From: an uncultured Gammaproteobacteria bacterium | GTDB lineage: Bacteria > Patescibacteriota > Microgenomatia > CAYXHB01 | DNA: 37,797 nucleotides | Direction of reading: 5' to 3' | NCBI GenBank assembly: GCA_964464795.1 | Contig: CAYXHB010000002.1 | Location: forward strand, 1-37,797 | Part shown: positions 12,432 through 37,797 of the stretch, one piece after another | Layout of the letters: the number at the start of each line of letters is the position of its first letter | Numbering within the stretch: the stretch's first letter is position 1 | The notes under the pieces: model-generated | Told to the model about the DNA's origin: nothing | Database searches by the model: none | What the model saw: only the letters and a program-made list of their open reading frames with translations | Program-made: the position numbers and the translations under genes

Positions 12432-13379
12432 ATGATTAAAAAGACTTTTCAGCTGGTTAGTTTATTTTTGTTTGTATTATTATTGCTTGGAGGGGTGGGG
12501 AAAGAAGTTTATGCCCAAGCTGGAAGGTCTTTGACTATCATTCCGCCCAAATTTGATGGGCTTTTTTCTAATCCAGGCGATACTTTGGTTGAACAAATCA
12601 GAGTGAGGAATGACTCTGATACACCAGTAACTTACGCTATCACAGTAGAAGACTTCACCACTAGTGGAGAAGAAGGCCAGGTCGTGCTTGAGGAAGGCGA
12701 GTCTGATTTGACATACTCGTTGGCTTCCTGGATAGAACTTGAAACACGCGACATCATATTGCAGCCAATGGAAGAAAAAGTGGTTACTTTTGTAGTTAAC
12801 GTACCTAGAAATGCGGAGCCTGGAGGGCATTATGCCTCTATTTTGTTTCAGTCCAGTGTTGACCAAGTCCCAGGGGGAGCAGCGGTCGCCCAAAGAGTTG
12901 GGTCTTTGGTGTTGTTGCGCGTGAGTGGAAACGTAGTTGAAGACGCAACCTTGGAAACTTTTTCTACTCCTAATTATCAGAAATCTGGTCCGATTACTTT
13001 TTCTTTGAGGGTTAAAAACGACGGAAATGTCCATGTGCAACCACAAGGAACAATTGTGATTAAGAATATGCTGGGCAGAAAAGTAGCAGAAATTCCCCTA
13101 GATAGCAGAAATGTACTTCCAGCTGCAGTAAGAAGGATGGATACAGTCTGGAATCAAGAGAGACTCTTGGGTCGATATACCGCTACCTTGATTGCGCAGT
13201 ATGGTGAAGGTGCGCAGAAGAAAACTCTAACTTCGGCTATTAACTTCACAGTTGCGTCTCCCATGGCCCTTACTTTGATTGCGGTTGGGGTTGTTGCCAC
13301 CCTGGGTTTCCTGTTCACTATGATTGCAGGATGGAAGAGAATGTCCAAGGCAATGCGGGTAATTGCGACTGGTAAATAA
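12432..13379 (+). CDS. Secreted Ig-like surface protein with a C-terminal TM anchor (architecture reminiscent of DUF916/DUF3324 proteins)
   Basis: The 315-aa ORF has a signal peptide ending VYAQA and two beta-rich segments (LVEQIRVRNDSDTPVTYAITVEDF; ITFSLRVKNDGNVHVQPQGTIVIKN). It also has PGGHYASILFQS, a C-terminal TM helix and a basic tail KRMSK. Confidence 0.6.
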   Translation: MIKKTFQLVSLFLFVLLLLGGVGKEVYAQAGRSLTIIPPKFDGLFSNPGDTLVEQIRVRNDSDTPVTYAITVEDFTTSGEEGQVVLEEGESDLTYSLASWIELETRDIILQPMEEKVVTFVVNVPRNAEPGGHYASILFQSSVDQVPGGAAVAQRVGSLVLLRVSGNVVEDATLETFSTPNYQKSGPITFSLRVKNDGNVHVQPQGTIVIKNMLGRKVAEIPLDSRNVLPAAVRRMDTVWNQERLLGRYTATLIAQYGEGAQKKTLTSAINFTVASPMALTLIAVGVVATLGFLFTMIAGWKRMSKAMRVIATGK

Positions 13380-13436
13380 TCTTTGTCTTTAGTTCTCCAC
13401 TGATTAGTTGTTAGAATGGATTATTGGTCTATTTTT

Positions 13437-14705
13437 ATGAATTTGAGTCGCAAGAAGATTATGATTTCATTTCGCAGTTTGGTTGGAGTTGGAACTACAA
13501 TTATTTTTTTGATGGCTTTGACGGTAGGCGGATGGGGAAACGTAACAACGACTTCCGCAGTGGGAAACTTGGAGGCGATGAAAGACATTATCGGAAGCGC
13601 CATTCCTGGGGCTGGAAATGTGTCGCACGAAATATCGTTTCGCTTGCCTTTTAATTCCTTACACATAGCCACCAGCGATTACATCATCATTGACATGGGA
13701 AATTTCTCTAATGTAACGGAGGCAAATCAAGTCACCGGTATATACGGAGGAACGCCTGTTTTTAGTCTAGATGGCAGTGAAGTAAAAATTACAGGGATAT
13801 TAGTGGAATCAGGTATACAATTAACTATTTCAGGCATAACTGCCACTAATCCAGGCTCGCCAATGTTGTATGGAGTAACGGTGATTGTTTCGGAAGACGA
13901 GGATGGGATGTTGATTAAAAATGTAGGGACTGTCTTGGCAAGCGGTACAGACGGATCGGTAAGCGTGACCGCGTCTATTGACCCTCCCGTGGCTTCGTTG
14001 GCAGTTTCTGGATACACATCTCCCGGGACATTTGTGACTTTTACTAATAACGGCACAGTGATTGGAACCGATACTGCAGGTCCGAGTGGTTTTTTTAGTC
14101 AGATTTTTACTGGACTACAACCCATGACACACATGTTAAGAATATATGGCATAGATCAACAAGGACGAGCAACTGCTCCGTTTTTTTTGGAGATATATAC
14201 ACCAATCTATCAACTAACCACGGTTACTGATATTATCCTGCCACCGACTATCCAGCTAAGCGACACTGTAGTGTTACAAGGCAATCACTTAGTAGTCAGC
14301 GGGTCTGCAGTCCCATCAGGAGATCTCAGTTTGTTTACGGAGTCGCCGATGCGGAGTTACTCTACTACTGTGAACCCATTAGGAAATTGGGCATATACCA
14401 TAACTGACACGGCTGATTATTTGCCTGGGGATTACCGGGCTTATTCAATAGTGCAAGATGGGTCTTTGCAGAGTCTGGCTGGGATTGCATTAGGGTTTAG
14501 TGTAACGGCTCTGGCGACTACACCAACTCCGGCTAATTGCAATATATCCCAAGGGGATCTTAATTGTGATACTAATGTGAATTTATTTGACTTTAGTATT
14601 CTCATGTATTATTGGGGAACCACTCAACCGGCAGGAGATATCAACGGCGACGGTGTGGTCAACTTATTTGATTTCAGTATCATGATGTACTACTGGGGAA
14701 CCTAG
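13437..14705 (+). CDS. Secreted protein with a C-terminal dockerin-type double repeat
   Basis: The N-terminal signal anchor is LVGVGTTIIFLMAL. A beta-rich body of ~370 aa shows no enzyme motif. A Thr/Pro linker (ATTPTPAN) precedes two 23-aa EF-hand-like dockerin segments, GDLNCDTNVNLFDFSILMYYWGT and GDINGDGVVNLFDFSIMMYYWGT. Confidence 0.8.
   Translation: MNLSRKKIMISFRSLVGVGTTIIFLMALTVGGWGNVTTTSAVGNLEAMKDIIGSAIPGAGNVSHEISFRLPFNSLHIATSDYIIIDMGNFSNVTEANQVTGIYGGTPVFSLDGSEVKITGILVESGIQLTISGITATNPGSPMLYGVTVIVSEDEDGMLIKNVGTVLASGTDGSVSVTASIDPPVASLAVSGYTSPGTFVTFTNNGTVIGTDTAGPSGFFSQIFTGLQPMTHMLRIYGIDQQGRATAPFFLEIYTPIYQLTTVTDIILPPTIQLSDTVVLQGNHLVVSGSAVPSGDLSLFTESPMRSYSTTVNPLGNWAYTITDTADYLPGDYRAYSIVQDGSLQSLAGIALGFSVTALATTPTPANCNISQGDLNCDTNVNLFDFSILMYYWGTTQPAGDINGDGVVNLFDFSIMMYYWGT
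14553..14702 (+). repeat. Tandem coding duplication encoding the two dockerin Ca-binding segments
   Basis: Two 69-nt units (14553-14621 and 14634-14702) are separated by 12 nt. The encoded peptides are identical at most positions. Confidence 0.8.
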
Positions 14706-16517: not shown

Positions 16518-17039
16518 ATGAATAAGTTGCAGATAGGGTTAGTAATTTTAATCTTAGTTTCATTTGGAGGCATTTTCTGGCTATATGGTCCCAGAGAAAG
16601 AGTTTTCGGAATATCTACCGCTGGATCAGGGAGTTATGAAATTGAGATACCAGAGAGAGTCAGTGCGGCAGATCCTTTCGTAATTAAGGTAATTGTTGAT
16701 ACAAAAGGAAAAAACGTCAACGCAGTGGGTTTGAATTTGAAGTTCGCAACTAATCGTTTGCAGATTCTAAATATGGATACTACCGGGTCATTTTGTGAGT
16801 TCTATCCTGAGAATCGTTATGATAACCAAAACGGACTTATCAAGATTTCGTGCGGGCTACCGTCCCCTGGGTTTAATGGTAAGGGGACTTTGGCTGAAAT
16901 TACGTTTGAGGCTCTCAGTGTGGGGATAGCAGATATTGAAATCCTACCTGATAGTTTAATCTTGCTTAATGACGGCAAAGGAACGAATATCTTAAAAGAA
17001 TATGCTGCTGAGGAAATTCTGGTGGTGGCTAATTTGTAA
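16518..17039 (+). CDS. Membrane-anchored cohesin-like domain protein
   Basis: The 173-aa ORF has an N-terminal TM helix (IGLVILILVSFGGIFWLYG). A ~140-aa module follows the cohesin pattern: FVIKVIVDTKGKNVNAVGLNLKFATNRLQILN, NGLIKISCG and GKGTLAEITFEALSVGIADIEI. Confidence 0.6.
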   Translation: MNKLQIGLVILILVSFGGIFWLYGPRERVFGISTAGSGSYEIEIPERVSAADPFVIKVIVDTKGKNVNAVGLNLKFATNRLQILNMDTTGSFCEFYPENRYDNQNGLIKISCGLPSPGFNGKGTLAEITFEALSVGIADIEILPDSLILLNDGKGTNILKEYAAEEILVVANL

Positions 17040-17314: not shown

Positions 17315-18739
17315 ATGGTTAAAGTTGGTCTTTATCTATTTGGATTGCTGTTGTCGTGTGTGTGGATGGGAGTAAACGCAGGGGATGTGCAGGCTCAGGC
17401 GAGGTTTTATATAGAAGGGGAGCAGGTTGTGGTAGTCGGCGAAACTTATAAGTATCATGTGTTCTTGGACAACACGAGTGGTGACTCGTCAATTAATGTG
17501 GTTCAGGCGACGGTTTCGATTCCTGGAAACTTTGGACAGGTTAAGGCTATATTCGCCGCTCCAGATGGATCAATTACAGGACTGTGTCTTATGAGTGTCG
17601 CACCACAGCCTGGAACTTCGGGTAAACCTCCACCTAATAACCAACAAACAACCCCATATTTTTATAATAATAATTATGTAAGCGCCTGTAATATAAATTC
17701 TCCCCTTGGAGGTAGAATTTATCTGGGTACGATGGAGCTTAATGCTAACACCCCAGGGGTCGTTTATCTTGCATTTAGCTCAACGGCTAACTATAACCTC
17801 GCGATTAAGCCAGAGCCACCATTCACTGTAGGTCTTGATATCTCATATTCACATGAAATTACTATTCTAGGTGCTGGCACACCAATGCCAACATATAGCT
17901 TAAGCGGAAAGATTCTACTGGATAGCAGTGGGTTGGACAATGTCACGGTAACTGCGGGTTCTAAATCTGCCCAAACAAATTCGTCTGGCAACTACACTAT
18001 CAATGGTCTGCTTCCTGGAAATTACAATGTAGTTCCTACGAAATCTGGATATACATTCACTCCACCCAATTATCCAGTAATAGTCACCTCTGTAAATATC
18101 GGTGATATAGACTTCATGGCAATAGCAAACCCGACAGCAGTGCCTACAGTAACACCAGCACCAACCTCGATACCTACTGGTGGCAGTGGCCAGTCATACT
18201 CACTGAGCGCGGACGATGTGAACTTTGTGAACGTGCAGCCTTTACCCACTCCGATTCCGGGTGATAATAGTCCACTGGAAGTCGTGGAGGAAGACAACAC
18301 CGTGCCTCCGCCGCCAGGTGATATTACACCCCGACCTCCGGCGACACCTTTTCCGACTCCTGATCCCAACGCAGTAGGCGGAGGTGGGGGTGACGATGGC
18401 GAGGTTTTATCGGTACAGTCTATCCGTGACCTACTTATTCCCGGCAAATCCAGAGCTGATAAAAATGTGGTGTTATTTAATTTTGTGTCGTTGCTGACTT
18501 TGTTAACGATCATCATTGTCATCATTTGGAGAATCATAATGTTGAAGCGGAAAAATAAGCTCAAACAAGAACATATCAGCGATTTAATTAATGGCGAATT
18601 GGCTGCCTTGGAAACTAAACTATCTGTATTGAATGAAAAAGACGGAGCTAAGTCGTTCCAAGCTGAGTTTGAGCAGACGGTTGACCATATACAGCAGGAG
18701 CTGTTGCTTAATAAGAAAGTCAAACAAGCGCCGGGTTAA
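17315..18739 (+). CDS. Scaffoldin-like anchored surface protein: cohesin-like N-domain, CarboxypepD_reg-like domain, Pro/Thr-rich linker, TM helix and cytoplasmic tail
   Basis: The signal peptide ends VQAQA. The N-terminal module has cohesin-like spacing (YKYHVFLDNT..INVVQATVSIPGNF..GRIYLGTMELNANTPGVVYLAF). SGKILLDSSGLDNVTVTAGSKSAQTNSSGNYTINGLLPGNYNVVPTKSGYTF matches the carboxypeptidase-regulatory-like fold pattern. A linker (PTAVPTVTPAPTSIPT, PPPPGDITPRPPATPFPTPDP) precedes the TM helix LLTLLTIIIVIIW and a ~70-aa charged tail. I chose the start at ATG 17315; the track uses GTG 17303. Confidence 0.65.
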   Translation: MVKVGLYLFGLLLSCVWMGVNAGDVQAQARFYIEGEQVVVVGETYKYHVFLDNTSGDSSINVVQATVSIPGNFGQVKAIFAAPDGSITGLCLMSVAPQPGTSGKPPPNNQQTTPYFYNNNYVSACNINSPLGGRIYLGTMELNANTPGVVYLAFSSTANYNLAIKPEPPFTVGLDISYSHEITILGAGTPMPTYSLSGKILLDSSGLDNVTVTAGSKSAQTNSSGNYTINGLLPGNYNVVPTKSGYTFTPPNYPVIVTSVNIGDIDFMAIANPTAVPTVTPAPTSIPTGGSGQSYSLSADDVNFVNVQPLPTPIPGDNSPLEVVEEDNTVPPPPGDITPRPPATPFPTPDPNAVGGGGGDDGEVLSVQSIRDLLIPGKSRADKNVVLFNFVSLLTLLTIIIVIIWRIIMLKRKNKLKQEHISDLINGELAALETKLSVLNEKDGAKSFQAEFEQTVDHIQQELLLNKKVKQAPG

Positions 18740-19879: not shown

Positions 19880-21439
19880 ATGAAATTTAGAAATATAAAA
19901 TTTGTCCAATTCCTGATGTGGGTAGTTGGAATTGCTTTATTTGTTGTTGCTTGGTGGATGAGTTTGATCATCTGGCCTGATTATGGTGAACCGTTTACTT
20001 ATGATCAGGCTCGTGATTTACTTGAGACTCGAGAACTGGTCCAAGGGCGGGATATTAAACTTCTTGGTCCAACAACCAGTATCAACGGGGTGCACTTGGG
20101 GCCTGTATATTATTATCTTTTATTACCTGGAATTTGGGTAGGAGGCGGCGATCCTCAGAGTGTACTTGATTGGCAAGTAAGTTTGTTCTTTATAAGCTGC
20201 ATAGGCTTATTTATCTGGGCAATGCGGAATAAAGATTGGGCGGTGATTTTGACAGCCTTAGTGATTGGCACGATGCCTGTAACAACTAGGTCAAGTCACT
20301 ATTTCTGGAATGCGCATTTTATGCTAACCAGCATGATTTGGCTTATCTGGATTTGGAAACTCGCCTCTAAAAATCAAAAAACTTGGTTATGGATTGGAGT
20401 AGGAATGGTATCGGGAGTTTGTTTACAAATGGAATCGGCTCTGGGCATAGTAGTTTTTCCAGCAATTATTATTAGGTTGTGGATGAAAAAATGGAAAAGT
20501 ACAATTAGATGGGTGATTGTGGGATTTGGTATCACTTTAATTCCACAAATTGTGTATGAGCTAACCCATGGAATGCAAATGAGTAAGTTACTCTTGCATG
20601 AGATAAACGGACAAGGTGTGCTAGGAGACCAAATCAACAACTGGAGTGACTTAATCCAAGACCGTTGGAGAATGTTAGTGAGTGTATTTATCTCGAGCTT
20701 TTCATTGCCTCCGGCATGGAGTTTAGGAGTGTTCGTGAGTTTGCTTTGGTTAGGATGGTGGGGAAGAAAAAAAGGCAAGGGCAAAAGTGAGATTGGGGTT
20801 CCAGGATTAATTTGGGTATTGGCAATAGCTCTTTACCTTGTTTATCCGTATCAACTCAAGCATTGGTATACATATGGATTGTGCGTGATACTCATGTGGG
20901 GATTCTGGGAATGGGTGGTTGGGAGTGGATATAAAAAGAGCGTGGTGGTGGGAGTTGGGATAGCTTTAATTTTATTTGCTAATGGACTGATTGAAGCGGA
21001 TAAATTTAAGCAATCTGCTGAAGCGATAAGTCTTGAAAACCCGAGTAGTTTAGTAAATCAAATAGAGGTAATAAAGGCTGCAGATAGTTTTTGTGGTGAC
21101 GATGACTATGCAATCCACACATTAGTTCCTGGGATTTATGATTATTCATATCAATACTTGGTTTGGTGGATGGGTAAGGAAGGACAAATTAGGCTCCCTT
21201 CTGTGATGAGCTATGAACCAGGCGTGCCTGCTTACGTTCCCAACTATGATAGCTTGTCGTGGAGTAACTCGTCAGATGAAACTAAAAATGTATGTGTAAT
21301 TATTGAGCCTGGGACGGAAAATTTGCAGCCTGGGTGGGAAGGGAGAATTGGTCTTGGTTGTGTGAGTGAAGAGAAAGTTTTTAATTTCGGAACCAGGGTG
21401 GAAAAACGCGTTAGTTGCGAGACGGAAAATGAAGTTTAA
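19880..21439 (+). CDS. Polytopic membrane protein, GT-C-type (ArnT/PMT_2-like) glycosyltransferase candidate
   Basis: The 519-aa ORF has about 12 hydrophobic helices and then a ~130-aa soluble C-terminus. The first external loop is acidic (YGEPFTYDQARDLLETRE). The start lies 8 nt after the lipoprotein gene stop. Confidence 0.5.
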   Translation: MKFRNIKFVQFLMWVVGIALFVVAWWMSLIIWPDYGEPFTYDQARDLLETRELVQGRDIKLLGPTTSINGVHLGPVYYYLLLPGIWVGGGDPQSVLDWQVSLFFISCIGLFIWAMRNKDWAVILTALVIGTMPVTTRSSHYFWNAHFMLTSMIWLIWIWKLASKNQKTWLWIGVGMVSGVCLQMESALGIVVFPAIIIRLWMKKWKSTIRWVIVGFGITLIPQIVYELTHGMQMSKLLLHEINGQGVLGDQINNWSDLIQDRWRMLVSVFISSFSLPPAWSLGVFVSLLWLGWWGRKKGKGKSEIGVPGLIWVLAIALYLVYPYQLKHWYTYGLCVILMWGFWEWVVGSGYKKSVVVGVGIALILFANGLIEADKFKQSAEAISLENPSSLVNQIEVIKAADSFCGDDDYAIHTLVPGIYDYSYQYLVWWMGKEGQIRLPSVMSYEPGVPAYVPNYDSLSWSNSSDETKNVCVIIEPGTENLQPGWEGRIGLGCVSEEKVFNFGTRVEKRVSCETENEV

Positions 21440-21466
21440 ATAACTAGACTCGCTGACGACACTATA

Positions 21467-23725
21467 TTAGTAGTCGATTGAGGACGTTTGATTTAGCATC
21501 TCTTGAGCTGGAGTGAAGTCTGGATTGTATTTAAGGATATACTCTAATTCCTGGCGGCTTTCGTTTAGATATCCGCCCTCGTAGTAAAGTTTGGCCAGCT
21601 CAAATCTGATGCCCGGCGATTGCGGATCGCGGAAAACTGCTTTGAGGAGAGTTTTGTAAGATTGGTTGAGTAACTCTGTGTCTAAACTGGCCTCACTGGC
21701 TGCCAATTCAGTTTGAGATTGTTTAAGAATTTCTTCAGCTGTGGGACTGATGCTTCCTGGGGCATAGAGTTCACCAGGGAGATCTTCAACCCCGGCAAGC
21801 AATTGGCGCGGTTGGGAAAATTGGGAGTTTAACTGGATGGCCAACTCCAGATGATAGCGGGCTTCAGTCAAATATCCTAGTTTCCCGTACAAAAAGCCGA
21901 GACTGAGATGCTTGTAAGCAAAATAATCTTTTAGTCCGGATTGGAAATAGTTTTTGGCTGGGGGAGAACTTTGGGAAAGAGTTTCTGACACCCAGTACTC
22001 TTGTTGGTTATCGGCAAGTGTGTCGGGAACTTGAGTTGTGACTTGGTATAAGTAACCTCTGGGAATGAGATAGAATGGATTAGCGTCAAACCCCATATAT
22101 TGACTGTAATATCCGTCTGGTTCAGAGAGGTATGTGGTTCGTTGACTGGCATTCCAACTGATTATGTCACTGGCAAAGAAGGGATTGTAAGAGTAAGGAT
22201 AACCTTGATATTGAGGGTTCTGGATTAAGAAATATTGGCGGTAATGGTTGTTTTTGAGTAGAACCGTGACGTCAGGGCGGTAGTCTTCAACAAGCTGTTC
22301 GTAAAGCAGACTGTAACATGAGATATCAGAGAAACAGATGATGACTGATTCTGGCTCGGCTGTGTCTAACATGCTTCGAGCGTAATCTTTGAGGAAGGTA
22401 TTGTCTGACTGGTTGGCGGTGAGGTAGTTGGCTTGGACTTGGTAAACTATTGAACCAACGATAACTAAAGAAAGCAGAATGTAGGAAGAGTTAGATTTGA
22501 GTTTGGAAGAGTTGTTGGATGACAAAAACCTGATAAGCCCGACCACGCTGATAACGGTTAACAAACCAAAGCTAATGTGACCAAGCTGGTACTGTCTATG
22601 TGAGATACCAATTCCAAGTCTGTAGTCTAAGCTTTCAGGAGAGTCCTCTGGCACACCCATATACACTCCGAACAGGAAACCTGAAACCAGCCAGAAACTA
22701 AAGGCAGTGATGAGTATCTGTTTGGGAAGGGTTCTCCAGCTGGCGGTTAATCCAATGACAGTGAGAGCTATGGCTGGCCAGGTAATTTGTTCAAACATAA
22801 ATTTAATATAGGCGACTGCCCCATTCAGGTAGAAACCTGGAGATTTGAAGTCTATGTATGCTGAGACAACCATCTCTTTATCCAAGATGGCACCGCTATA
22901 GTCCCGTCTGAAAATCAACCTCCACCAACCGTCAAAACTCTGGTCAAATACCCATGACATTGTTACTTGACGGCTGTTTAGCCAAAAAAGCAGAAGATTG
23001 GGAAGAAGCCAAAAGAGGAAAAGAACAGCCGTGCCTGGCAAAATGAGCTTGGGAAAAACTTGGGTCTTCCAGAAGTAAAACTTGGAGTGAAAAAATACCG
23101 CGCAGGTAGCAACCATGACTCCTGGGACAAGAAGGATAAAAGTGTGGACTGTCGACAGTCCCAAGCCCACACTGAGCCAGGCGATTAACCACCATTTCAA
23201 TGAGCCAAGGCGAGAGTCAGGTGTGATGCTAAGTTGCCATTTGATAACGGAAAGAAAAAGCAATCCGGCAAATAAGTTGTTGAGAGCGCCTACTTCAATA
23301 ATACCCCCGTAAAGCCAAAAAATAGCCGAGAAAGTCAAAAGCAGACTGGCAATAATTGGCAAAAGAGCCACGGAACGGTGACTTTCCGAAGAGCGCATAT
23401 GTTGAGCCAATGTATAGGCACAAAGAGCGACTAGCCCAACGGTGAAAGCGTGAGTAACCATGGCAAGAAGATTTGAACGGAAAGCAATCGAGGCAGCCAG
23501 GGGAATGAGAGAGAATAACTTAGATACAATTACCACCAAGGGGTATCCGGAAGGATGAGCCACTCCTAATAAATGGGCAATCGTGATAACTTCATCTGAG
23601 TCCCCGTAGCCGATGTTAGTTCTAGGGGCGGTTTGGTAATAAGCGAAGAAAGAAATCAAAACTACAAGCAGAATCGTAAAGATGGCGAATTTATGATTAC
23701 TTAGAAGATTGGTGACTGACTTCAT
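21467..23725 (-). CDS. DUF2723/TMEM260-like polytopic protein with C-terminal TPR repeats (putative protein O-glycosyltransferase)
   Basis: The 752-aa ORF has the N-terminal signature NIGYGDSDEVITIAHLLGVAHPSGYPL and many TM helices. The C-terminus has TPR-like repeats (LGFLYGKLGYLTEARYHLELAIQLN; LAKLYYEGGYLNESRQELEYILKYNP). Confidence 0.8.
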   Translation of the reverse strand: MKSVTNLLSNHKFAIFTILLVVLISFFAYYQTAPRTNIGYGDSDEVITIAHLLGVAHPSGYPLVVIVSKLFSLIPLAASIAFRSNLLAMVTHAFTVGLVALCAYTLAQHMRSSESHRSVALLPIIASLLLTFSAIFWLYGGIIEVGALNNLFAGLLFLSVIKWQLSITPDSRLGSLKWWLIAWLSVGLGLSTVHTFILLVPGVMVATCAVFFHSKFYFWKTQVFPKLILPGTAVLFLFWLLPNLLLFWLNSRQVTMSWVFDQSFDGWWRLIFRRDYSGAILDKEMVVSAYIDFKSPGFYLNGAVAYIKFMFEQITWPAIALTVIGLTASWRTLPKQILITAFSFWLVSGFLFGVYMGVPEDSPESLDYRLGIGISHRQYQLGHISFGLLTVISVVGLIRFLSSNNSSKLKSNSSYILLSLVIVGSIVYQVQANYLTANQSDNTFLKDYARSMLDTAEPESVIICFSDISCYSLLYEQLVEDYRPDVTVLLKNNHYRQYFLIQNPQYQGYPYSYNPFFASDIISWNASQRTTYLSEPDGYYSQYMGFDANPFYLIPRGYLYQVTTQVPDTLADNQQEYWVSETLSQSSPPAKNYFQSGLKDYFAYKHLSLGFLYGKLGYLTEARYHLELAIQLNSQFSQPRQLLAGVEDLPGELYAPGSISPTAEEILKQSQTELAASEASLDTELLNQSYKTLLKAVFRDPQSPGIRFELAKLYYEGGYLNESRQELEYILKYNPDFTPAQEMLNQTSSIDY

Positions 23726-25941
23726 AAAATAACCTGTCGTTGGGTAGTTGGTGTCTGAATCAAAGTATGCAAGTCTTGCAGGGCATCTTGAGCAGTTTGG
23801 TTGCTCGGGTCGAGAATGAGAACGTTGAGATACTCTTCCATTGACGACTCAATCAGTCCGTACTCTTTGAACGTAAGTGCCACGGCCAAACGGGCTTCCA
23901 CACTGTCTGGGTAAACCGCAATGGCACCAACAGCCATCTTATGAGCTACATCCAAACGTCGTTTCTGTTTCCATTCATCGATAAGACTAAGGAATTCAGC
24001 CAACGCGATTGGCTCCTCTCCTGGAGCGAAACGTGGGTCAATGTTGCTTGACTCAATTGAACGCCTGACGCCTTCGAAGTTGGTTTCAATCGGTTCTTGC
24101 AACCTAAGGTAGTCATCTAAGTTGCCAGCAATATTGAGTTCCTCACGAGCTTGGTTACGATAGTCTGAGCGCAACTGAATGACACTATTGAATTGGTAAC
24201 TTCTGATAACGTTACTTAGGTAATATAATCTCATTCTATCGTGACTCGGTATCGGTGTTTCTAATATCCAATTCGATAAACTAAAATCGCTTTGGGGGAA
24301 TTCTAACGGCTGAACGCGAGTTAACTCTCCATAAATTCCGTAAGGAACATAGTATGTAAAGCCTTCGTTAATTCCCAAAAGATGGTAATAATACTCTGAG
24401 ATTTCGACGGCGTATACAGGCCGTTTATCTATATTCCAAGTTATGTAATCGAAAGTTCTAAATGGGTCTTGAGTGTAAACGAAATTTTTAAGATTAGGAA
24501 TTTGTTCCAGCTGGGCAGCAGCTAAGGGATAAGCCCTGGGTAAAACTAACACATCTGGACGCAACCCATTGACTGACTGTTCGTACATTAGAGCAAAACA
24601 ACTAGTGTCAGTAAAACAGGCCACCAAAGCATTTGGTTTGAGTTGGGTAAGAACTGTTGAGTATGTTTGGGAAACGAATTTGAAGTTACGCAAATTAGAT
24701 TGAGGATATTGACGAACTAGTCCATTGATAAGAAAAAGAAGAGAAACAGAATAGATAATAAACAGAGTTTTGCGGGTTGGAATGTTAAGAACCGAGAGTC
24801 CGAGATTTAGACGATGTACAAAAAATACTAATCCAAAAGCAAAGAAAATAGGCCAAAATATATATCCCATTAACAGTAGTCTTTGAATGTTAGCCTGGGA
24901 GCCAAAGTGTTCCGGCCAGCCAAGGATGCCGGAGAAAAAAGGACCGGTTAAAATGAGACAAATGGCAAGGACAAAAGAAACTTGTCGGCTGAATTTGGTA
25001 AGAGCATAGAAACCGAATAAGGAAACTATCATAACGAGAACACCTATCTGGTCGGCAGTCAGCTCTAAGTATTGCGGCAAGAAGTTAAAGATGCTTTCTG
25101 GGTCGATGGTAGGCACGTAAGCATTAACCACTTGGCCTGTCTCAGTCACAACTCCAGCAAACTCTTGTCTACTAACATGGCGCCACAAACCGCGGACTCC
25201 AGGTTCAACCTGCCAGGAAAAAGCGGCAGCCTGGTTGTTTTGTAACCAAATAATTGAGTAAACAGCAATAACTACAGTCGCGAATACAGAGACTGATTGA
25301 ATCCAGTGATGAAGAGTTAGATGACGGATGTTTTTGATAAGGGCAAATAAAACTAAGGGGAATACAAGGATGACTGTGTGATGATGAGAAACAGCCAAAG
25401 CCAGAACAACGGCACTGACAATCCAAAACTTTTTGTCAGTAGGCTGTTTAACGACGGCTACCATACTTCGATATATCAAAGCGGTAGTTAAAAAAAGATG
25501 GAAGCTGAATACTTCAGTAACTGTACTGTATGTCCAGAATAGTGGAGTGGTTCCTAGAATCGAGGTTGAAATGAAAGCAATGATTTGTTGATTGAAAGTC
25601 GACTGTTTGACTTTGGCAGGTGTTAAGTTGGACAAAAGATAGCGAATAGTTTGATATATCAAAATTAGAGTTCCAACTGAAAAAACTGCGCTGAGAAGGT
25701 GGCCACGGAAAGCTGGTGTGCCGGCAATTAAAGATATTTTTGTCCAAATACTCAAGATAAACATATAAAGTGGATATCCAGGCGGGTGGGCAACGCCCCC
25801 ACCATAGGCAACCGAGAGCAGCTGGTCTGAATCAGAGTAGCCGACATTTACTTGCGGTAGAGTGGTGACGTATAGATATGTGAAGAGAAGTATCAGTAAA
25901 GTGACCCAGAAATTATCTTTTTGCCAGAAACGATTTATCAT
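23722..25941 (-). CDS. DUF2723/TMEM260-like polytopic protein with a C-terminal TPR region (paralog)
   Basis: The 739-aa ORF has the signature NVGYSDSDQLLSVAYGGGVAHPPGYPL and a TPR-like tail (ARLAVALTFKEYGLIESSMEEYLNVLILDPSN). Its stop overlaps the downstream paralog's start in an ATGA junction at 23722-23725. Confidence 0.8.
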   Translation of the reverse strand: MINRFWQKDNFWVTLLILLFTYLYVTTLPQVNVGYSDSDQLLSVAYGGGVAHPPGYPLYMFILSIWTKISLIAGTPAFRGHLLSAVFSVGTLILIYQTIRYLLSNLTPAKVKQSTFNQQIIAFISTSILGTTPLFWTYSTVTEVFSFHLFLTTALIYRSMVAVVKQPTDKKFWIVSAVVLALAVSHHHTVILVFPLVLFALIKNIRHLTLHHWIQSVSVFATVVIAVYSIIWLQNNQAAAFSWQVEPGVRGLWRHVSRQEFAGVVTETGQVVNAYVPTIDPESIFNFLPQYLELTADQIGVLVMIVSLFGFYALTKFSRQVSFVLAICLILTGPFFSGILGWPEHFGSQANIQRLLLMGYIFWPIFFAFGLVFFVHRLNLGLSVLNIPTRKTLFIIYSVSLLFLINGLVRQYPQSNLRNFKFVSQTYSTVLTQLKPNALVACFTDTSCFALMYEQSVNGLRPDVLVLPRAYPLAAAQLEQIPNLKNFVYTQDPFRTFDYITWNIDKRPVYAVEISEYYYHLLGINEGFTYYVPYGIYGELTRVQPLEFPQSDFSLSNWILETPIPSHDRMRLYYLSNVIRSYQFNSVIQLRSDYRNQAREELNIAGNLDDYLRLQEPIETNFEGVRRSIESSNIDPRFAPGEEPIALAEFLSLIDEWKQKRRLDVAHKMAVGAIAVYPDSVEARLAVALTFKEYGLIESSMEEYLNVLILDPSNQTAQDALQDLHTLIQTPTTQRQVIL

Positions 25942-25997
25942 ATTGAACAGCAGTATAGCGAATCAATTAAAGTTTACCAAATCGGAATTCAAGTTAG

Positions 25998-32727: not shown

Positions 32728-33324
32728 ATGACACCGCAACTTGATTATCTGTATAACGAACCCAAATGGCAGGCTCATCTGACTGATGAGTCGAAATTTT
32801 TTGTATGCCAGGATGGAGGTAAAATTAGGAGTTTGTGGGAGTTGCGAGAGAGTCTGCTATCTGTCAGTGAGGAAACATTTAACGCGATGGTGAGCGAAGA
32901 ATACAATCATTTGGCAACTTGGGTGGCTGACTCGGTTGGAGACTCTACTCTGGCTGCTGATTTGCAGTCACGCAAAGGGCGCTGGGAAATATTGTCGGCT
33001 CTGGAGAGTTACATGATTAGGAGTTTGGCTGTGCCTGGGTATTTGGCTTTCCGATGGTTGGAACTGACTAGTAATTCATTTACAACTAAATCTGGGGATG
33101 TGGTGAAGAACCTACGCCACGCAAGAGAGATGCTCCAAGGAGGAGATAATAATGCTTTATTGGCACATCTGAAGTCAAATAAGCAGGATTTTAGTGACTG
33201 GGCGCGGGGGGCAATTGGGGACTATATGCTCTCAGACATGGTAGAGGATGCTGACAGTGGTGAGAAAGCGGCTCAAGTAGTGATTGACCACGTGGCGATG
33301 CTGGAGACGGCGTTGGAAAGATAG
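32728..33324 (+). CDS. Hypothetical protein built from two tandem ~75-aa repeats
   Basis: The ORF is 198 aa. Repeat 1 runs FVCQDGGKIRSLWELRESL..FNAMVSEEYNHLATWVADSVGDSTLAADL. Repeat 2 runs FTTKSGDVVKNLRHAREML..LLAHLKSNKQDFSDWARGAIGDYMLSDMV. The start lies 6 nt after the GH57 stop. Confidence 0.6.
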   Translation: MTPQLDYLYNEPKWQAHLTDESKFFVCQDGGKIRSLWELRESLLSVSEETFNAMVSEEYNHLATWVADSVGDSTLAADLQSRKGRWEILSALESYMIRSLAVPGYLAFRWLELTSNSFTTKSGDVVKNLRHAREMLQGGDNNALLAHLKSNKQDFSDWARGAIGDYMLSDMVEDADSGEKAAQVVIDHVAMLETALER

Positions 33325-35418: not shown

Positions 35419-36954
35419 ATGTTATTCCTAGTTAATGGACGGGAAATATTATTTAAGTGGACCCATATTTTGACTGCCCTGATTTTGGGGTTGTTTGTAT
35501 ATATAGTGGGCACTGACTTGCAGTACAACACGGCCTTCGTTGATGAAGCTATTTATGCCAACGTTGGGGAAGAGTTTATGCGTAATGCTTCTTGGGATGC
35601 TCCCTTGAGCTGGATGGGAGGGTCATATGTGTACCCGTTTTTGAGCGCGAATATAAATAGACTCTGGGGATTATGGGGTATTCGACTAGCTTCGTTAGCC
35701 ATGGTGCTCGGGTCTGCGTGGTGTGTCGGGATACTAGGGAAAAAGGTTGCCGACGGGTGGGGGAGACCGCTGGCTATGGGTCTATTTTTGTTTTCGGCCC
35801 CAACCTTGGGAGTGGCCCAACTGGCAACTTATGATGCGCCAAGTATGTTGGCGTTTGCTCTAGGCAGCTTGGCACTATTCGCGAGCATCGATGAGCAGGG
35901 GTGGAAAAAATATTTGGGAATCCTGGTCTCGGGACTGCTGGTGGGCGGGTCGATTTTGATTAAATATGTAACAGTGCTAGTAACTGCACCCTTGGCACTA
36001 TTACATCTTAGCGCCAAACGACAGTGGTTATTGGGTGGATTCTTCTGGGGATGGATTATCTTGGCGATGGTAGCGCCATATGTTTATCTTAATTATGAGG
36101 ACCTCTACTCTTATGCTACAGGCGGTCATTCAATTGAAAACACTTCACGATTGAATATCTTGTCTCAGTTAGTCCAACAGATTCCCACACTAGTATTTGG
36201 GGCAATTATGGCTTGTGCAATGCTATGGAAATCAGAAACTAGAATGAAAAAGAATCGAATGTTAATTCTGTTTCTAATTGGACTAGCACCGATTGCTTAT
36301 CATTTGGGGTCAGGAAACATCCGTTCGTTTAACAAACATTTATCATTAGCAGGGGTGATGTGGGCACCTTTGACGGCCTGGGCCACGCTGACGTTGTTAA
36401 AGCTATTTAGGAAATATCAACAGGTTCACGGGGCGGTTGCCAATAGCATGCAGTTGATCACCTCAGTGGTACTCATCGCAATATTCACCAGTCTATGGAC
36501 AGCCTTTAGTTTGCACTGGCAATTTGAGCGTTCTTGGCCGTCAGCTAACAAGACCGTGGAATATCTGGATAATCATTTGGTAACAGGTGACAAAGTATTT
36601 GCCGAAGGTGCGGCAACTTACAAGTATCATTTGTTCCGTGGGTTTGGTGACTATAGTGCTTGGCCAAGTACCTGGTATTATGAGAAAGACGGGAAACTGG
36701 GAGCTGAGGCGATGAAAGAAGCGATTGCAGAGCGCGAGTTTCGATATATTGTCTTGAATAACTATTTCACTAACGCGACTAATCAGGAAATTTTGCCAGT
36801 GGTGAGAGAGCACTATGAGACTGTGGCGCAAGAAGAATACTTGCTCTCAGGTGTGCATGAAACTACTACTACAGTTTGGGAAAGGAAACCTCAAGTTAGG
36901 TTTGGATTCTTGGATTTGTTAGTTAAAGCGGAGAGTGACTCCAGCACAATTTAG
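35419..36954 (+). CDS. GT-C-type (ArnT/PMT-like) membrane glycosyltransferase
   Basis: The 511-aa ORF has about 11 TM helices and then a ~130-aa soluble C-terminus. The first loop carries the DE-x-x-Y motif typical of PMT/ArnT-type enzymes (AFVDEAIYANVGEEF). Confidence 0.65.
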   Translation: MLFLVNGREILFKWTHILTALILGLFVYIVGTDLQYNTAFVDEAIYANVGEEFMRNASWDAPLSWMGGSYVYPFLSANINRLWGLWGIRLASLAMVLGSAWCVGILGKKVADGWGRPLAMGLFLFSAPTLGVAQLATYDAPSMLAFALGSLALFASIDEQGWKKYLGILVSGLLVGGSILIKYVTVLVTAPLALLHLSAKRQWLLGGFFWGWIILAMVAPYVYLNYEDLYSYATGGHSIENTSRLNILSQLVQQIPTLVFGAIMACAMLWKSETRMKKNRMLILFLIGLAPIAYHLGSGNIRSFNKHLSLAGVMWAPLTAWATLTLLKLFRKYQQVHGAVANSMQLITSVVLIAIFTSLWTAFSLHWQFERSWPSANKTVEYLDNHLVTGDKVFAEGAATYKYHLFRGFGDYSAWPSTWYYEKDGKLGAEAMKEAIAEREFRYIVLNNYFTNATNQEILPVVREHYETVAQEEYLLSGVHETTTTVWERKPQVRFGFLDLLVKAESDSSTI

Positions 36955-36960
36955 AAAAGT

Positions 36961-37797
36961 ATGTTAATTCAAGCTCATATATATATTCAACCAAAGAACT
37001 GGCAGAGGATACCTGGGGCGTTGTTCCTAATCTCAGGCGCGGTTTACTTGAGTTGGTTAATAGGTAACTTGAACATGGACGCGCCTGTAGTTGGGGTTTC
37101 GTTCTGGACAATGCAATTTTTGACCTATCTGATTGTGAGCTTGTCAGTAGTGAATAACTGGAAAAGCAGCTACCGAACCGAGAAGTTAACCCTGACCAGG
37201 ACTCCAGACGTGGCAGCGATTGTGCCTACATATGGTGAAGGTGTGGAGATTATTGCTCCTACAGTAAGGTCGTTGTTGAATTCTGATTACACTGGCCGGG
37301 TCGTGGTAGTGCTCTCCAATGATGAATTGGGAGAGGAAAAAGTCTCTCAATTGGAGCAACTGAAAGCAGAAATTGAGCAAGAACTTATAAGCGGGAACTA
37401 TGCTGGAGAGCGAGTCTTTTACCTACGCAACTCAACCCCTCATAATCAGGCAAAAGCAGGAAACTTGAATCAGGCAATGGTGTTCTTGCGTGAAAGGCAT
37501 CCTGAGATTGAGTTGTTGGTTACCGAAGATGCTGATGAGGTAGTTTATCCTGAGTTTATTAGGACTGTGGTGGGGTATTTCGAGAATCCTAAAGTAGCTT
37601 ATGTACAGACGATTAAACAATCTTTGACTCACCCTGACGACCCGTTTGGAAATCAAGATTTGATGTTCTACTGCCGGACAGCCGCCTCGAGAGATGCTGA
37701 TAATGCAATGTTTGCTTGTGGTTCAGGTGTGATGTGGAGGATTAAAGCCTTGGAAGAGGTAGGCGGATTTGATACCTGGAACCTGGTGGAGGATTTG
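36961..37797 (+). CDS. Cellulose-synthase-like GT2 processive glycosyltransferase (partial; the 3' end lies outside the window)
   Basis: This ORF is not in the supplied track because it has no stop. My own translation from ATG 36961 runs open for 279 codons to the window end: two TM helices, then VAAIVPTYGEG, NQAKAGNLNQAM, TEDADEVVYPEF and ACGSGVMWRIKALEEVGGFDTWNLVEDL. These match the BcsA/CesA-type D, D, D and (T)ED motifs. Confidence 0.8.
   Translation, partial: MLIQAHIYIQPKNWQRIPGALFLISGAVYLSWLIGNLNMDAPVVGVSFWTMQFLTYLIVSLSVVNNWKSSYRTEKLTLTRTPDVAAIVPTYGEGVEIIAPTVRSLLNSDYTGRVVVVLSNDELGEEKVSQLEQLKAEIEQELISGNYAGERVFYLRNSTPHNQAKAGNLNQAMVFLRERHPEIELLVTEDADEVVYPEFIRTVVGYFENPKVAYVQTIKQSLTHPDDPFGNQDLMFYCRTAASRDADNAMFACGSGVMWRIKALEEVGGFDTWNLVEDL

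Follow-up and report, generated by a model that had tools for sequence, protein, structure and literature searches.

A co-diverged pair of TMEM260-like membrane proteins, putatively a protein O-glycosyltransferase with a conserved and a relaxed partner, beside a cohesin-dockerin surface cluster

In a 37,797-nucleotide stretch of DNA (contig CAYXHB010000002.1 of assembly GCA_964464795.1, deposited as an uncultured Gammaproteobacteria bacterium and placed by GTDB in the Patescibacteriota; hereafter the window), two adjacent genes on the reverse strand, a and b, encode members of the TMEM260 family, an assignment established by sequence, fold, domain architecture and active-site residues, the enzymatic activity being putative. 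Comparison across genomes indicates that the two genes are an old duplication that has co-diverged, with a conserved active site predicted for b and a relaxed, sometimes dead one for a. This asymmetry is the main new point of the analysis and was missed by the first-pass annotation of the window. We propose that a and b form a two-gene operon for a paired TMEM260-type (GT-C) protein O-glycosyltransferase, a compound explanation that we regard, taken whole, as evenly poised between right and wrong. The features of the pair are listed here.

23722-25941, reverse strand: gene a (P0001), upstream TMEM260-like paralog, 739 amino acids (aa), from its open reading frame (ORF), PF11028 match and residue mapping
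21467-23725, reverse strand: gene b (P0002), downstream TMEM260-like paralog, 752 aa, from its ORF, PF11028 match and residue mapping
23722-23725, reverse strand: ATGA in which the stop of a and the start of b overlap (translational coupling), from the sequence
24697-25941, reverse strand: predicted membrane GT-C region of a, residues 1-415, including the first extracytoplasmic loop motif GYSDSDQLLSVAYGGGVAHPPGYPL (model, alignment)
24319-24678, reverse strand: predicted five-stranded Rossmann-like domain of a, residues 422-541, with C442-x2-D445-x2-C448 (model, alignment)
23728-24282, reverse strand: C-terminal helical repeats of a, like tetratricopeptide repeats (TPR), residues 554-738 (model, Foldseek)
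22415-23725, reverse strand: predicted membrane GT-C region of b, residues 1-437, including GYGDSDEVITIAHLLGVAHPSGYPL and the donor-loop motif R273-R-D-Y276 (model, alignment)
22037-22396, reverse strand: predicted Rossmann-like domain of b, residues 444-563, with C464-x2-D467-x2-C470 (model, alignment)
21482-22006, reverse strand: C-terminal TPR domain of b, residues 574-748 (model, Foldseek, Pfam)
25952-25980, reverse strand: promoter-like TTGGTA-17-TATACT, a candidate only, in the 56-nucleotide (nt) gap between the branching-enzyme gene and gene a

The first-pass annotation had placed two ORFs opening with DUF2723 signature motifs at 21467-25941 and assigned both to the DUF2723/TMEM260 family; the coordinates and N-terminal motifs were confirmed, and the assignment held. 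Against PF11028 (TMEM260-like), a scored 79.4 bits and b 87.7 bits, the Pfam gathering cut-off being 24.2, and both matched human TMEM260 (PDB 9RQL) directly by phmmer, b with E = 3.2e-22 over its residues 32-495 and a with E = 2.8e-10 over its residues 23-469, each match reaching the Rossmann-like domain. Relatives of a and b carry precomputed matches to PF11028 and PF28495 (TMEM260_2). The AlphaFold2 models (predicted local distance difference test values of 94.5 and 93.5 for the two, predicted template modelling score 0.93 each) both begin with a helical membrane core, continue with five beta strands flanked by helices (residues 439-541 in a and 461-563 in b) and end in helical repeats. The top Foldseek matches in the PDB were, for both proteins, GT-C enzymes only (ArnT, PglB, STT3, ALG9/12, DPY19 and Pmt1/2/4, probability 1.00), so that the anticipated GT-C fold is present in both models, and the conserved first-loop Asp is kept as D37 in a and D42 in b. 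The TPR-like repeats that had been read at both C-termini are supported by the models and by Foldseek matches to TPR proteins (OGT, SPY and designed CTPRs), although the TPR profiles of Pfam gave sub-threshold matches only in b and none in a. In the solved structures of human TMEM260 (PDB 9RQL, 9RQM and 9RQN), an 11-helix GT-C 'wrist' binds dolichyl-phosphate mannose and is joined by a Rossmann-like 'palm' and by TPR 'fingers', which hold the extended acceptor peptide (bioRxiv 10.64898/2026.03.17.711096). By homology, the Rossmann-like and TPR lobes of a and b would lie outside the cytoplasmic membrane.

The PDB fold library of Foldseek contains no TMEM260 entries, which makes the structural comparison one with other GT-C enzymes and accounts for the first rank of ArnT. 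That rank bears on the possibility that the acceptor is not a protein and that the pair decorates a lipid or a wall glycopolymer outside the membrane, like ArnT, YfhO and the Emb enzymes. Lipids or polymers are the targets of many bacterial GT-C enzymes, and the best structural matches in the library are indeed to ArnT; however, ArnT comes first only through the content of the library, and the sequence kinship is specifically to TMEM260, including the catalytic-base Asp of the Rossmann-like domain and the TPR, which form the peptide groove of TMEM260. A non-protein acceptor is improbable in our estimation.

The ATGA stop/start overlap at 23722-23725 reported earlier was confirmed in the sequence, and the coupling of the paralogs that had been drawn from it extends to relatives, being conserved in 9 of 10 a/b pairs checked; the remaining a/b pairs have short gaps of 8 to 64 nt between the genes. 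The order a-then-b was found in all 16 pairs seen (the window and 15 further genomes). Since the gene 5' of a lies on the opposite strand in most relatives, the pair constitutes a self-contained two-gene unit. Co-transcription with the branching-enzyme gene was rejected as a general feature: this arrangement occurs only in the near relatives of the window and in the locus L113, and the branching-enzyme gene is a lineage-specific neighbour, as the 5' gene is divergent in most other loci. Promoter and terminator scans around the pair returned sites no commoner than in shuffled sequence. The sequencing runs holding this sequence comprised one DNA metagenome run, with no RNA run listed.

Relatives were collected by a one-genome-per-species scan, which gave 505 relatives, with 80 loci kept; a metagenome scan that started from the cohesin-like protein described below supplied additional pairs, as did six extra contexts chosen from a whole-library protein search. 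When the ORFs of the locus set were searched with the window proteins, the same a-then-b pair was recovered in seven further genomes, while more distant family members are mostly single genes. Proteins a and b share 24% identity over their full length, the a clade and the b clade each receive Shimodaira-Hasegawa-like approximate likelihood-ratio support of 99-100 with matching internal topologies, and from genome to genome the a proteins show almost the same identity among themselves as the b proteins do. These separate, mirrored clades and near-equal identities indicate that the duplication predates the lineages and that the two genes diverged in step; a recent tandem duplication was rejected on the grounds of the low identity and the separate deep clades. 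One locus, L010 (7752-18987), holds five TMEM260-like genes in tandem, namely a, b and three more diverged copies, with no adjoining cohesin cluster. L010, L011, L013, L014 and others are third-party-annotation metagenome-assembled genomes labelled 'uncultured Gammaproteobacteria' or 'Pseudomonadales' that carry a Patescibacteria-type gene block, and their organism labels look unreliable.

In TMEM260, D52, H67, R264, Y267 and D441 (the catalytic base) are essential and R355 is important (bioRxiv 10.64898/2026.03.17.711096). We mapped these positions, together with E55, through HMMER alignments to TMEM260 and an 81-sequence family alignment, in which the D52 position is invariant and H67, R264 and D441 are kept in 80, 80 and 78 of the 81 members, respectively. 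Protein b keeps every mapped position: D42 (D52), E45 (E55), H57 (H67), R273 (R264), Y276 (Y267), R377 (R355) and D467 (D441). Protein a keeps D37 (D52), H52 (H67), R258 (R264), R354 (R355) and D445 (D441), so that the catalytic-base Asp of the Rossmann-like domain is retained in both proteins, and has Q40 instead of E55 and F261 instead of Y267. Four of the five donor-binding residues are therefore present in a and all of them in b, and the a of this genome looks still potentially active.

A library-wide phmmer search with b returned 6,895 cluster representatives at E <= 0.001, of which 156 at E <= 1e-30; a second, word-indexed homolog search with a b-ortholog profile revealed no new close relatives. 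The best 150 phmmer representatives, together with the earlier homologs, were sorted by a- and b-specific profiles into 68 b-like and 50 a-like proteins, which as representatives at 50% identity are not independent events. Retention of the TMEM260 residues in the two groups was as follows.

D52: kept in 67/68 b-like and 42/50 a-like
E55: kept in 67/68 b-like and 24/50 a-like (Leu in 15)
H67: kept in 66/68 b-like and 38/50 a-like
R264: kept in 67/68 b-like and 39/50 a-like
Y267: kept in 61/68 b-like (Phe in 6) and 0/50 a-like (Phe in 32, Leu in 8)
R355: kept in 67/68 b-like and 44/50 a-like
D441: kept in 67/68 b-like and 43/50 a-like
Cys pair around the base (C-x2-D-x2-C): kept in 62/68 b-like and 50/50 a-like

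Each of the six mutagenesis-tested TMEM260 positions is thus present in 61-67 of the 68 b-like representatives. Degenerate a copies, which remain full-length and conserved, occur in the sampled loci L007, L111, L099 and L115. The a proteins of L007 and L111 are sisters with identical substitutions (E55 to L, H67 to L, R355 to P and D441 to K), and they share 40% identity over 701 columns, compared with 37% for their intact b partners. Since these copies are as conserved as the intact partners, the comparison indicates that a catalytically dead a is kept under purifying selection. The ATGA coupling, the mirrored trees and the conservation of catalytically degenerate a copies would be indirect signs of an a-b complex. 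In L099, 1.1 kb at the place of gene b (12775-13917) holds no long ORF and no detectable b similarity, and the a of that locus has lost most catalytic residues.

The Cys pair brackets the catalytic-base Asp at 22316-22336 in b (C464-D467-C470) and at 24598-24618 in a (C442-D445-C448). It is clade-specific, being found in 20 of 81 members across the wider family, and could be a disulfide or a metal site.

The surface cluster beside the pair encodes a WxLIP-like anchor, an Ig-like protein with a dockerin at its end, a bitopic protein whose cytoplasmic arm is long and charged, a small cohesin-like protein anchored in the membrane, a larger membrane-anchored protein bearing Pro/Thr linkers, and a probable lipoprotein. 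Three features of this cluster matter for the choice of an acceptor.

16518-17039, forward strand: small membrane-anchored cohesin-like protein, core of the co-occurring surface cluster (synteny)
17315-18739, forward strand: membrane-anchored cohesin-like protein (hereafter the anchor), probably the best candidate acceptor (linkers, conserved motif)
18125-18196 and 18296-18373, forward strand: Pro/Thr-rich linkers of the anchor, the second holding DN[TS][IV]P.PP..(T)PRP..TP

Despite protein identities of only 30-45%, the pair adjoins the cohesin-dockerin cluster in 17 of 20 informative genomes: in 12 of the 14 found through their DUF2723 genes, and in 5 of the 6 informative loci that an independent search with the cohesin-like protein brought in. 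In two of the 17, this window and L114, one extra gene separates the pair from the cluster. The exceptions to adjacency are L010, L113 and L090, the last having a branching-enzyme gene after the cohesin-like gene. Every locus that bears the cluster also has the larger cohesin-like anchor, whose N-terminal domain shares homology with the small cohesin-like protein (hhalign probability 97%). The Thr/Pro linkers pointed out in the first-pass annotation, PTAVPTVTPAPTSIPT at 18131-18178 and ATTPTPAN at 14511-14534, are both present. Pro/Thr/Ser-rich linkers were found in 15 of 16 anchor orthologs, and all of these orthologs share the Pro-rich motif DN[TS][IV]P.PP..(T)PRP..TP just outside the membrane; in the window, a C-terminal transmembrane (TM) anchor and a cytoplasmic tail lie 3' of the linkers. 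Throughout the anchor family, the Pro-rich juxtamembrane motif is followed by a conserved G.VL..QS.R.LLIPGKS.ADK and then by the TM helix. TMEM260 binds extended, proline-punctuated peptides (bioRxiv 10.64898/2026.03.17.711096), a preference that the Pro-rich segments of the anchor would fit; by analogy this is suggestive, and it is not evidence. Within the cluster, the anchor would be the likeliest acceptor, as a candidate only, and the neighbouring cluster as acceptor is itself advanced tentatively, at a likelihood that falls well short of even.

Taken together, we infer the following scheme for donor, sugar, acceptor and the association of a with b. Protein b would be the conserved catalytic enzyme, its membrane core binding, by homology to human TMEM260, a polyprenyl-phosphate hexose (mannose-like) through D42, H57, R273, Y276 and R377. 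In b, the extracytoplasmic lobes (TPR 'fingers' and Rossmann-like 'palm') would grip a secreted or membrane-anchored protein along an extended stretch, and D467 would deprotonate a Ser/Thr hydroxyl, leading to inverting transfer of the sugar outside the cytoplasmic membrane. Protein a, an ancient paralog whose synthesis the ATGA overlap presumably ties to that of b, would most likely be the partner of b in a hetero-complex or an acceptor-handling subunit; its sugar-contacting site is altered in all a-like members and lost altogether in several lineages. The likeliest acceptors would be extended, Pro/Thr-rich stretches in the cohesin-dockerin surface proteins encoded nearby, first of all in the anchor. 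A narrower version, in which a and b are a heterodimer of an enzyme and a pseudo-enzyme (or altered enzyme) dedicated to O-glycosylating the Pro-rich juxtamembrane segment of the anchor in the cohesin scaffold, seems to us quite unlikely; if true, it would be a bacterial counterpart of the Pmt1-Pmt2 principle, with sugar decoration built into the assembly of the cohesin-dockerin surface apparatus.

Several findings weigh against the paired-enzyme explanation, and the first of them touch on the partnership of a with b. Each TMEM260 entry in the PDB is a single chain, so the family needs no partner in principle; some b-like and single-copy members also carry Phe where TMEM260 has Tyr267, and the change from Tyr to Phe need not inactivate; and L099, where a lone degenerate a-type gene stands without a remnant of b, misfits a strict model in which a needs b. 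It could thus be that a and b are independent, co-regulated and active O-glycosyltransferases that differ in donor or acceptor motif or act sequentially, with a decaying where its substrate is lost. Such independence would accord with the single-chain entries, with the retention of D37, H52, R258, R354 and D445 by the a of the window, with the five tandem paralogs of L010, which suggest a diversification of specificity, and with the replacement of Tyr267 by Phe and of E55 by Gln or a hydrophobic residue, which falls in the sugar-contacting region and could mean another sugar. However, the degenerate a copies of L007 and L111 are conserved like their intact partners and are not decaying, and the fixed gene order, the recurrent ATGA overlap and the mirrored a and b trees also argue against independence, which we consider unlikely, if realistic.

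The second set of findings on the adverse side concerns the acceptor. The pair is convergent with the cluster and hence not co-transcribed with it; in L113, unrelated genes follow the pair, the glucan side being kept and the cluster lost; L010 combines its five copies with the lack of a cluster; and the cytoplasmic GH13 and glucan genes on the opposite flank are kept about as often as the cluster (12/15), so that synteny alone does not name the acceptor. The enzyme assignment could therefore be right and the acceptor lie elsewhere (pilins, an S-layer or many Sec substrates), the adjacency being inherited order in a slowly rearranging block. Actinobacterial Pmt, to which this alternative can be likened, modifies many Sec substrates. 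The equal conservation of the glucan flank, the loci without a cluster beside the pair and the convergent orientation all speak for such an acceptor, although the enzymes of that flank carry no signal peptide. On the other side stand L008 and L115, which have lost the glucan genes yet keep the pair beside the cluster, the frequent adjacency at such low protein identity, and the conserved extended Pro/Thr segments of the anchor; an acceptor elsewhere is rather unlikely in our view, but a serious contender. A functional link to the alpha-glucan genes was also considered; the adjacent alpha-glucan enzymes have no signal peptide, whereas the catalytic lobe of the family is extracytoplasmic by homology. 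With L008 and L115, this makes us lean towards the cluster rather than the glucan side. The phylogenomic association with cohesin/dockerin genes that had been anticipated was thus found in 17 of 20 genomes but is inseparable from the conservation of the whole gene block: the association of pair and cluster is real but not decisive.

Three null results add to the adverse side. For the asparagine ladder with which the TPR of TMEM260 binds its acceptor, no invariant Asn was seen in the C-terminal third of b orthologs, and the HMMER alignments end before the TPR; no donor GT2 of the Ppm1/GtrB type was seen in the window; and a literature search found no study of a bacterial TMEM260-family member. 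The dedicated surface-protein glycosylation system proposed in the first-pass annotation accordingly survives in its family, fold, coupling and cluster adjacency, and is weakened by the inseparability of the acceptor from block conservation, by the convergent orientation, by the sub-threshold status of two of its supposed GT-C proteins and by the lack of a Ppm1/GtrB-type donor GT2 in the window.

These two proteins were examined with Pfam, NCBIfam, hhalign and a sequence search of the PDB.

19880-21439, forward strand: 519-aa polytopic membrane protein, possible GT-C, between the cluster and the pair (PMT_2 sub-threshold)

The PMT_2 profile, with a cut-off of 26.1, scored this protein at 18.6 bits and the 511-aa protein encoded at 35419-36954 at 24.1 bits; hhalign against the family alignment was weak (39% and 66%, respectively), and neither protein had a PDB match by sequence. 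Of the four GT-C enzymes once counted in the window, a and b are firm, and the other two remain below the PMT_2 cut-off. No homolog of the 519-aa protein was found in any of 118 loci, and by this comparison its gene is a lineage-specific insertion; L114 has a different, 256-aa gene at the same junction of cluster and pair. The distance of 27 nt that had been given between pair and surface cluster corresponds to a real gap at 21440-21466, but the gene adjoining it is this insertion, absent from related loci. The sole GT2 in the window, at 36961-37797 (open-ended), has two N-terminal membrane helices and processive-synthase motifs; its gene begins 6 nt after the possible GT-C gene at 35419-36954, and it is unlike a polyprenyl-phosphate sugar synthase. 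A gene for a DUF5752-like protein of about 198 aa lies near the pair in almost every locus (32728-33324 in the window, 2424-3023 in L008 and 179-778 in L115); in L008 and L115, which have lost the glucan genes, it stands immediately 5' of gene a in divergent orientation. Otherwise the window is typical of an ultra-small Patescibacteria genome.

In summary, the kind of enzyme is known, and what is new is the conserved pairing of a and b, with a relaxed or dead partner, beside a cohesin-dockerin cluster, of which no description was found in the literature searched. It was not until 2023 that TMEM260 became known as a protein O-mannosyltransferase, with a structure in 2026, and its bacterial relatives are many, as the phmmer search showed. 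This locus offers a concrete bacterial case, with a catalytically intact b, a relaxed or dead yet conserved sister and a short list of acceptor candidates with Pro/Thr segments. Were the explanation true, the TMEM260 family would be shown to act on proteins in bacteria, a paired and possibly enzyme/pseudo-enzyme form would be added to the GT-C glycosyltransferases, and ultra-small, host-dependent bacteria would be known to glycosylate their cohesin-dockerin surface apparatus.

Compared with human TMEM260 (PF11028; PMC10214176), whose discovery paper mentions only 'distant homologs in bacteria' (PMC10214176), a and b belong to the same Pfam family and share a sequence match, the architecture of GT-C core, Rossmann-like domain and TPR and, in b, equivalents of all the residues. 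They differ in forming an ancient, translationally coupled pair, in which a never has Tyr at Tyr267 and has repeatedly lost other essential residues, and in the clade-specific C-x2-D-x2-C around the catalytic base. As donor they must use a bacterial polyprenyl phosphate sugar, no sequon of the IPT-domain kind was found for them, and their activity is putative.

Within other Patescibacteria, single-copy TMEM260-like genes follow pilin-type genes directly in 15 of 82 loci, none of them a/b loci, which suggests that placement beside exported surface-protein genes is a tendency of the family. In L009, L038, L046, L048, L054, L066-L068, L070, L077 and L078, such genes lie <=5 kb from ORFs for GFTLIEL-type pilins, several of them 1-68 nt downstream of the pilin ORF on the same strand. 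These genes share with a and b the family, the phylum-level group and the position beside exported surface-protein genes, but they are co-directional with the pilins, whereas the a/b pair is convergent on the cohesin-dockerin cluster and has no pilin-type ORF within 5 kb.

Among more distant systems, GT-C enzymes of streptococci draw on undecaprenyl-phosphate sugars to glycosylate adhesins and the Ser/Thr-rich, disordered regions of membrane proteins, an O-glycosylation of the Gram-positive type (PMC11092751). Pgf (PgfS with the GT-C proteins PgfM1 and PgfM2) and GtrB/PgtC2 resemble our proposal in extracytoplasmic O-glycosylation by GT-C enzymes, and Pgf in having two GT-C proteins (PMC11092751). 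Both belong to other GT-C families (YfhO-like and others) and have the donor-making GT2 in the same cluster, whereas none was seen in this window. Pairing of GT-C paralogs also has a proposed bacterial precedent. In the mycobacterial embCAB operon, embA and embB stand side by side. An EmbA-EmbB heterodimer has been proposed (PMC2885622, PMC7305291); there, the acceptor is cell-wall arabinan, the extracytoplasmic domain is another one and both subunits are active.

Yeast Pmt1-Pmt2, a complex of solved structure (PDB 6P25), and animal POMT1-POMT2 (GT39) differ from a and b in having PMT and MIR domains, no Rossmann-like/TPR lobe and two catalytic subunits, where the a/b heterodimer is only inferred. 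The membrane module is weakly similar in structure to that of a and b (6P25, Foldseek), and the likeness lies in the arrangement: paired, paralogous GT-C protein O-mannosyltransferases that use polyprenyl-phosphate mannose to modify Ser/Thr in extended or unfolded segments.

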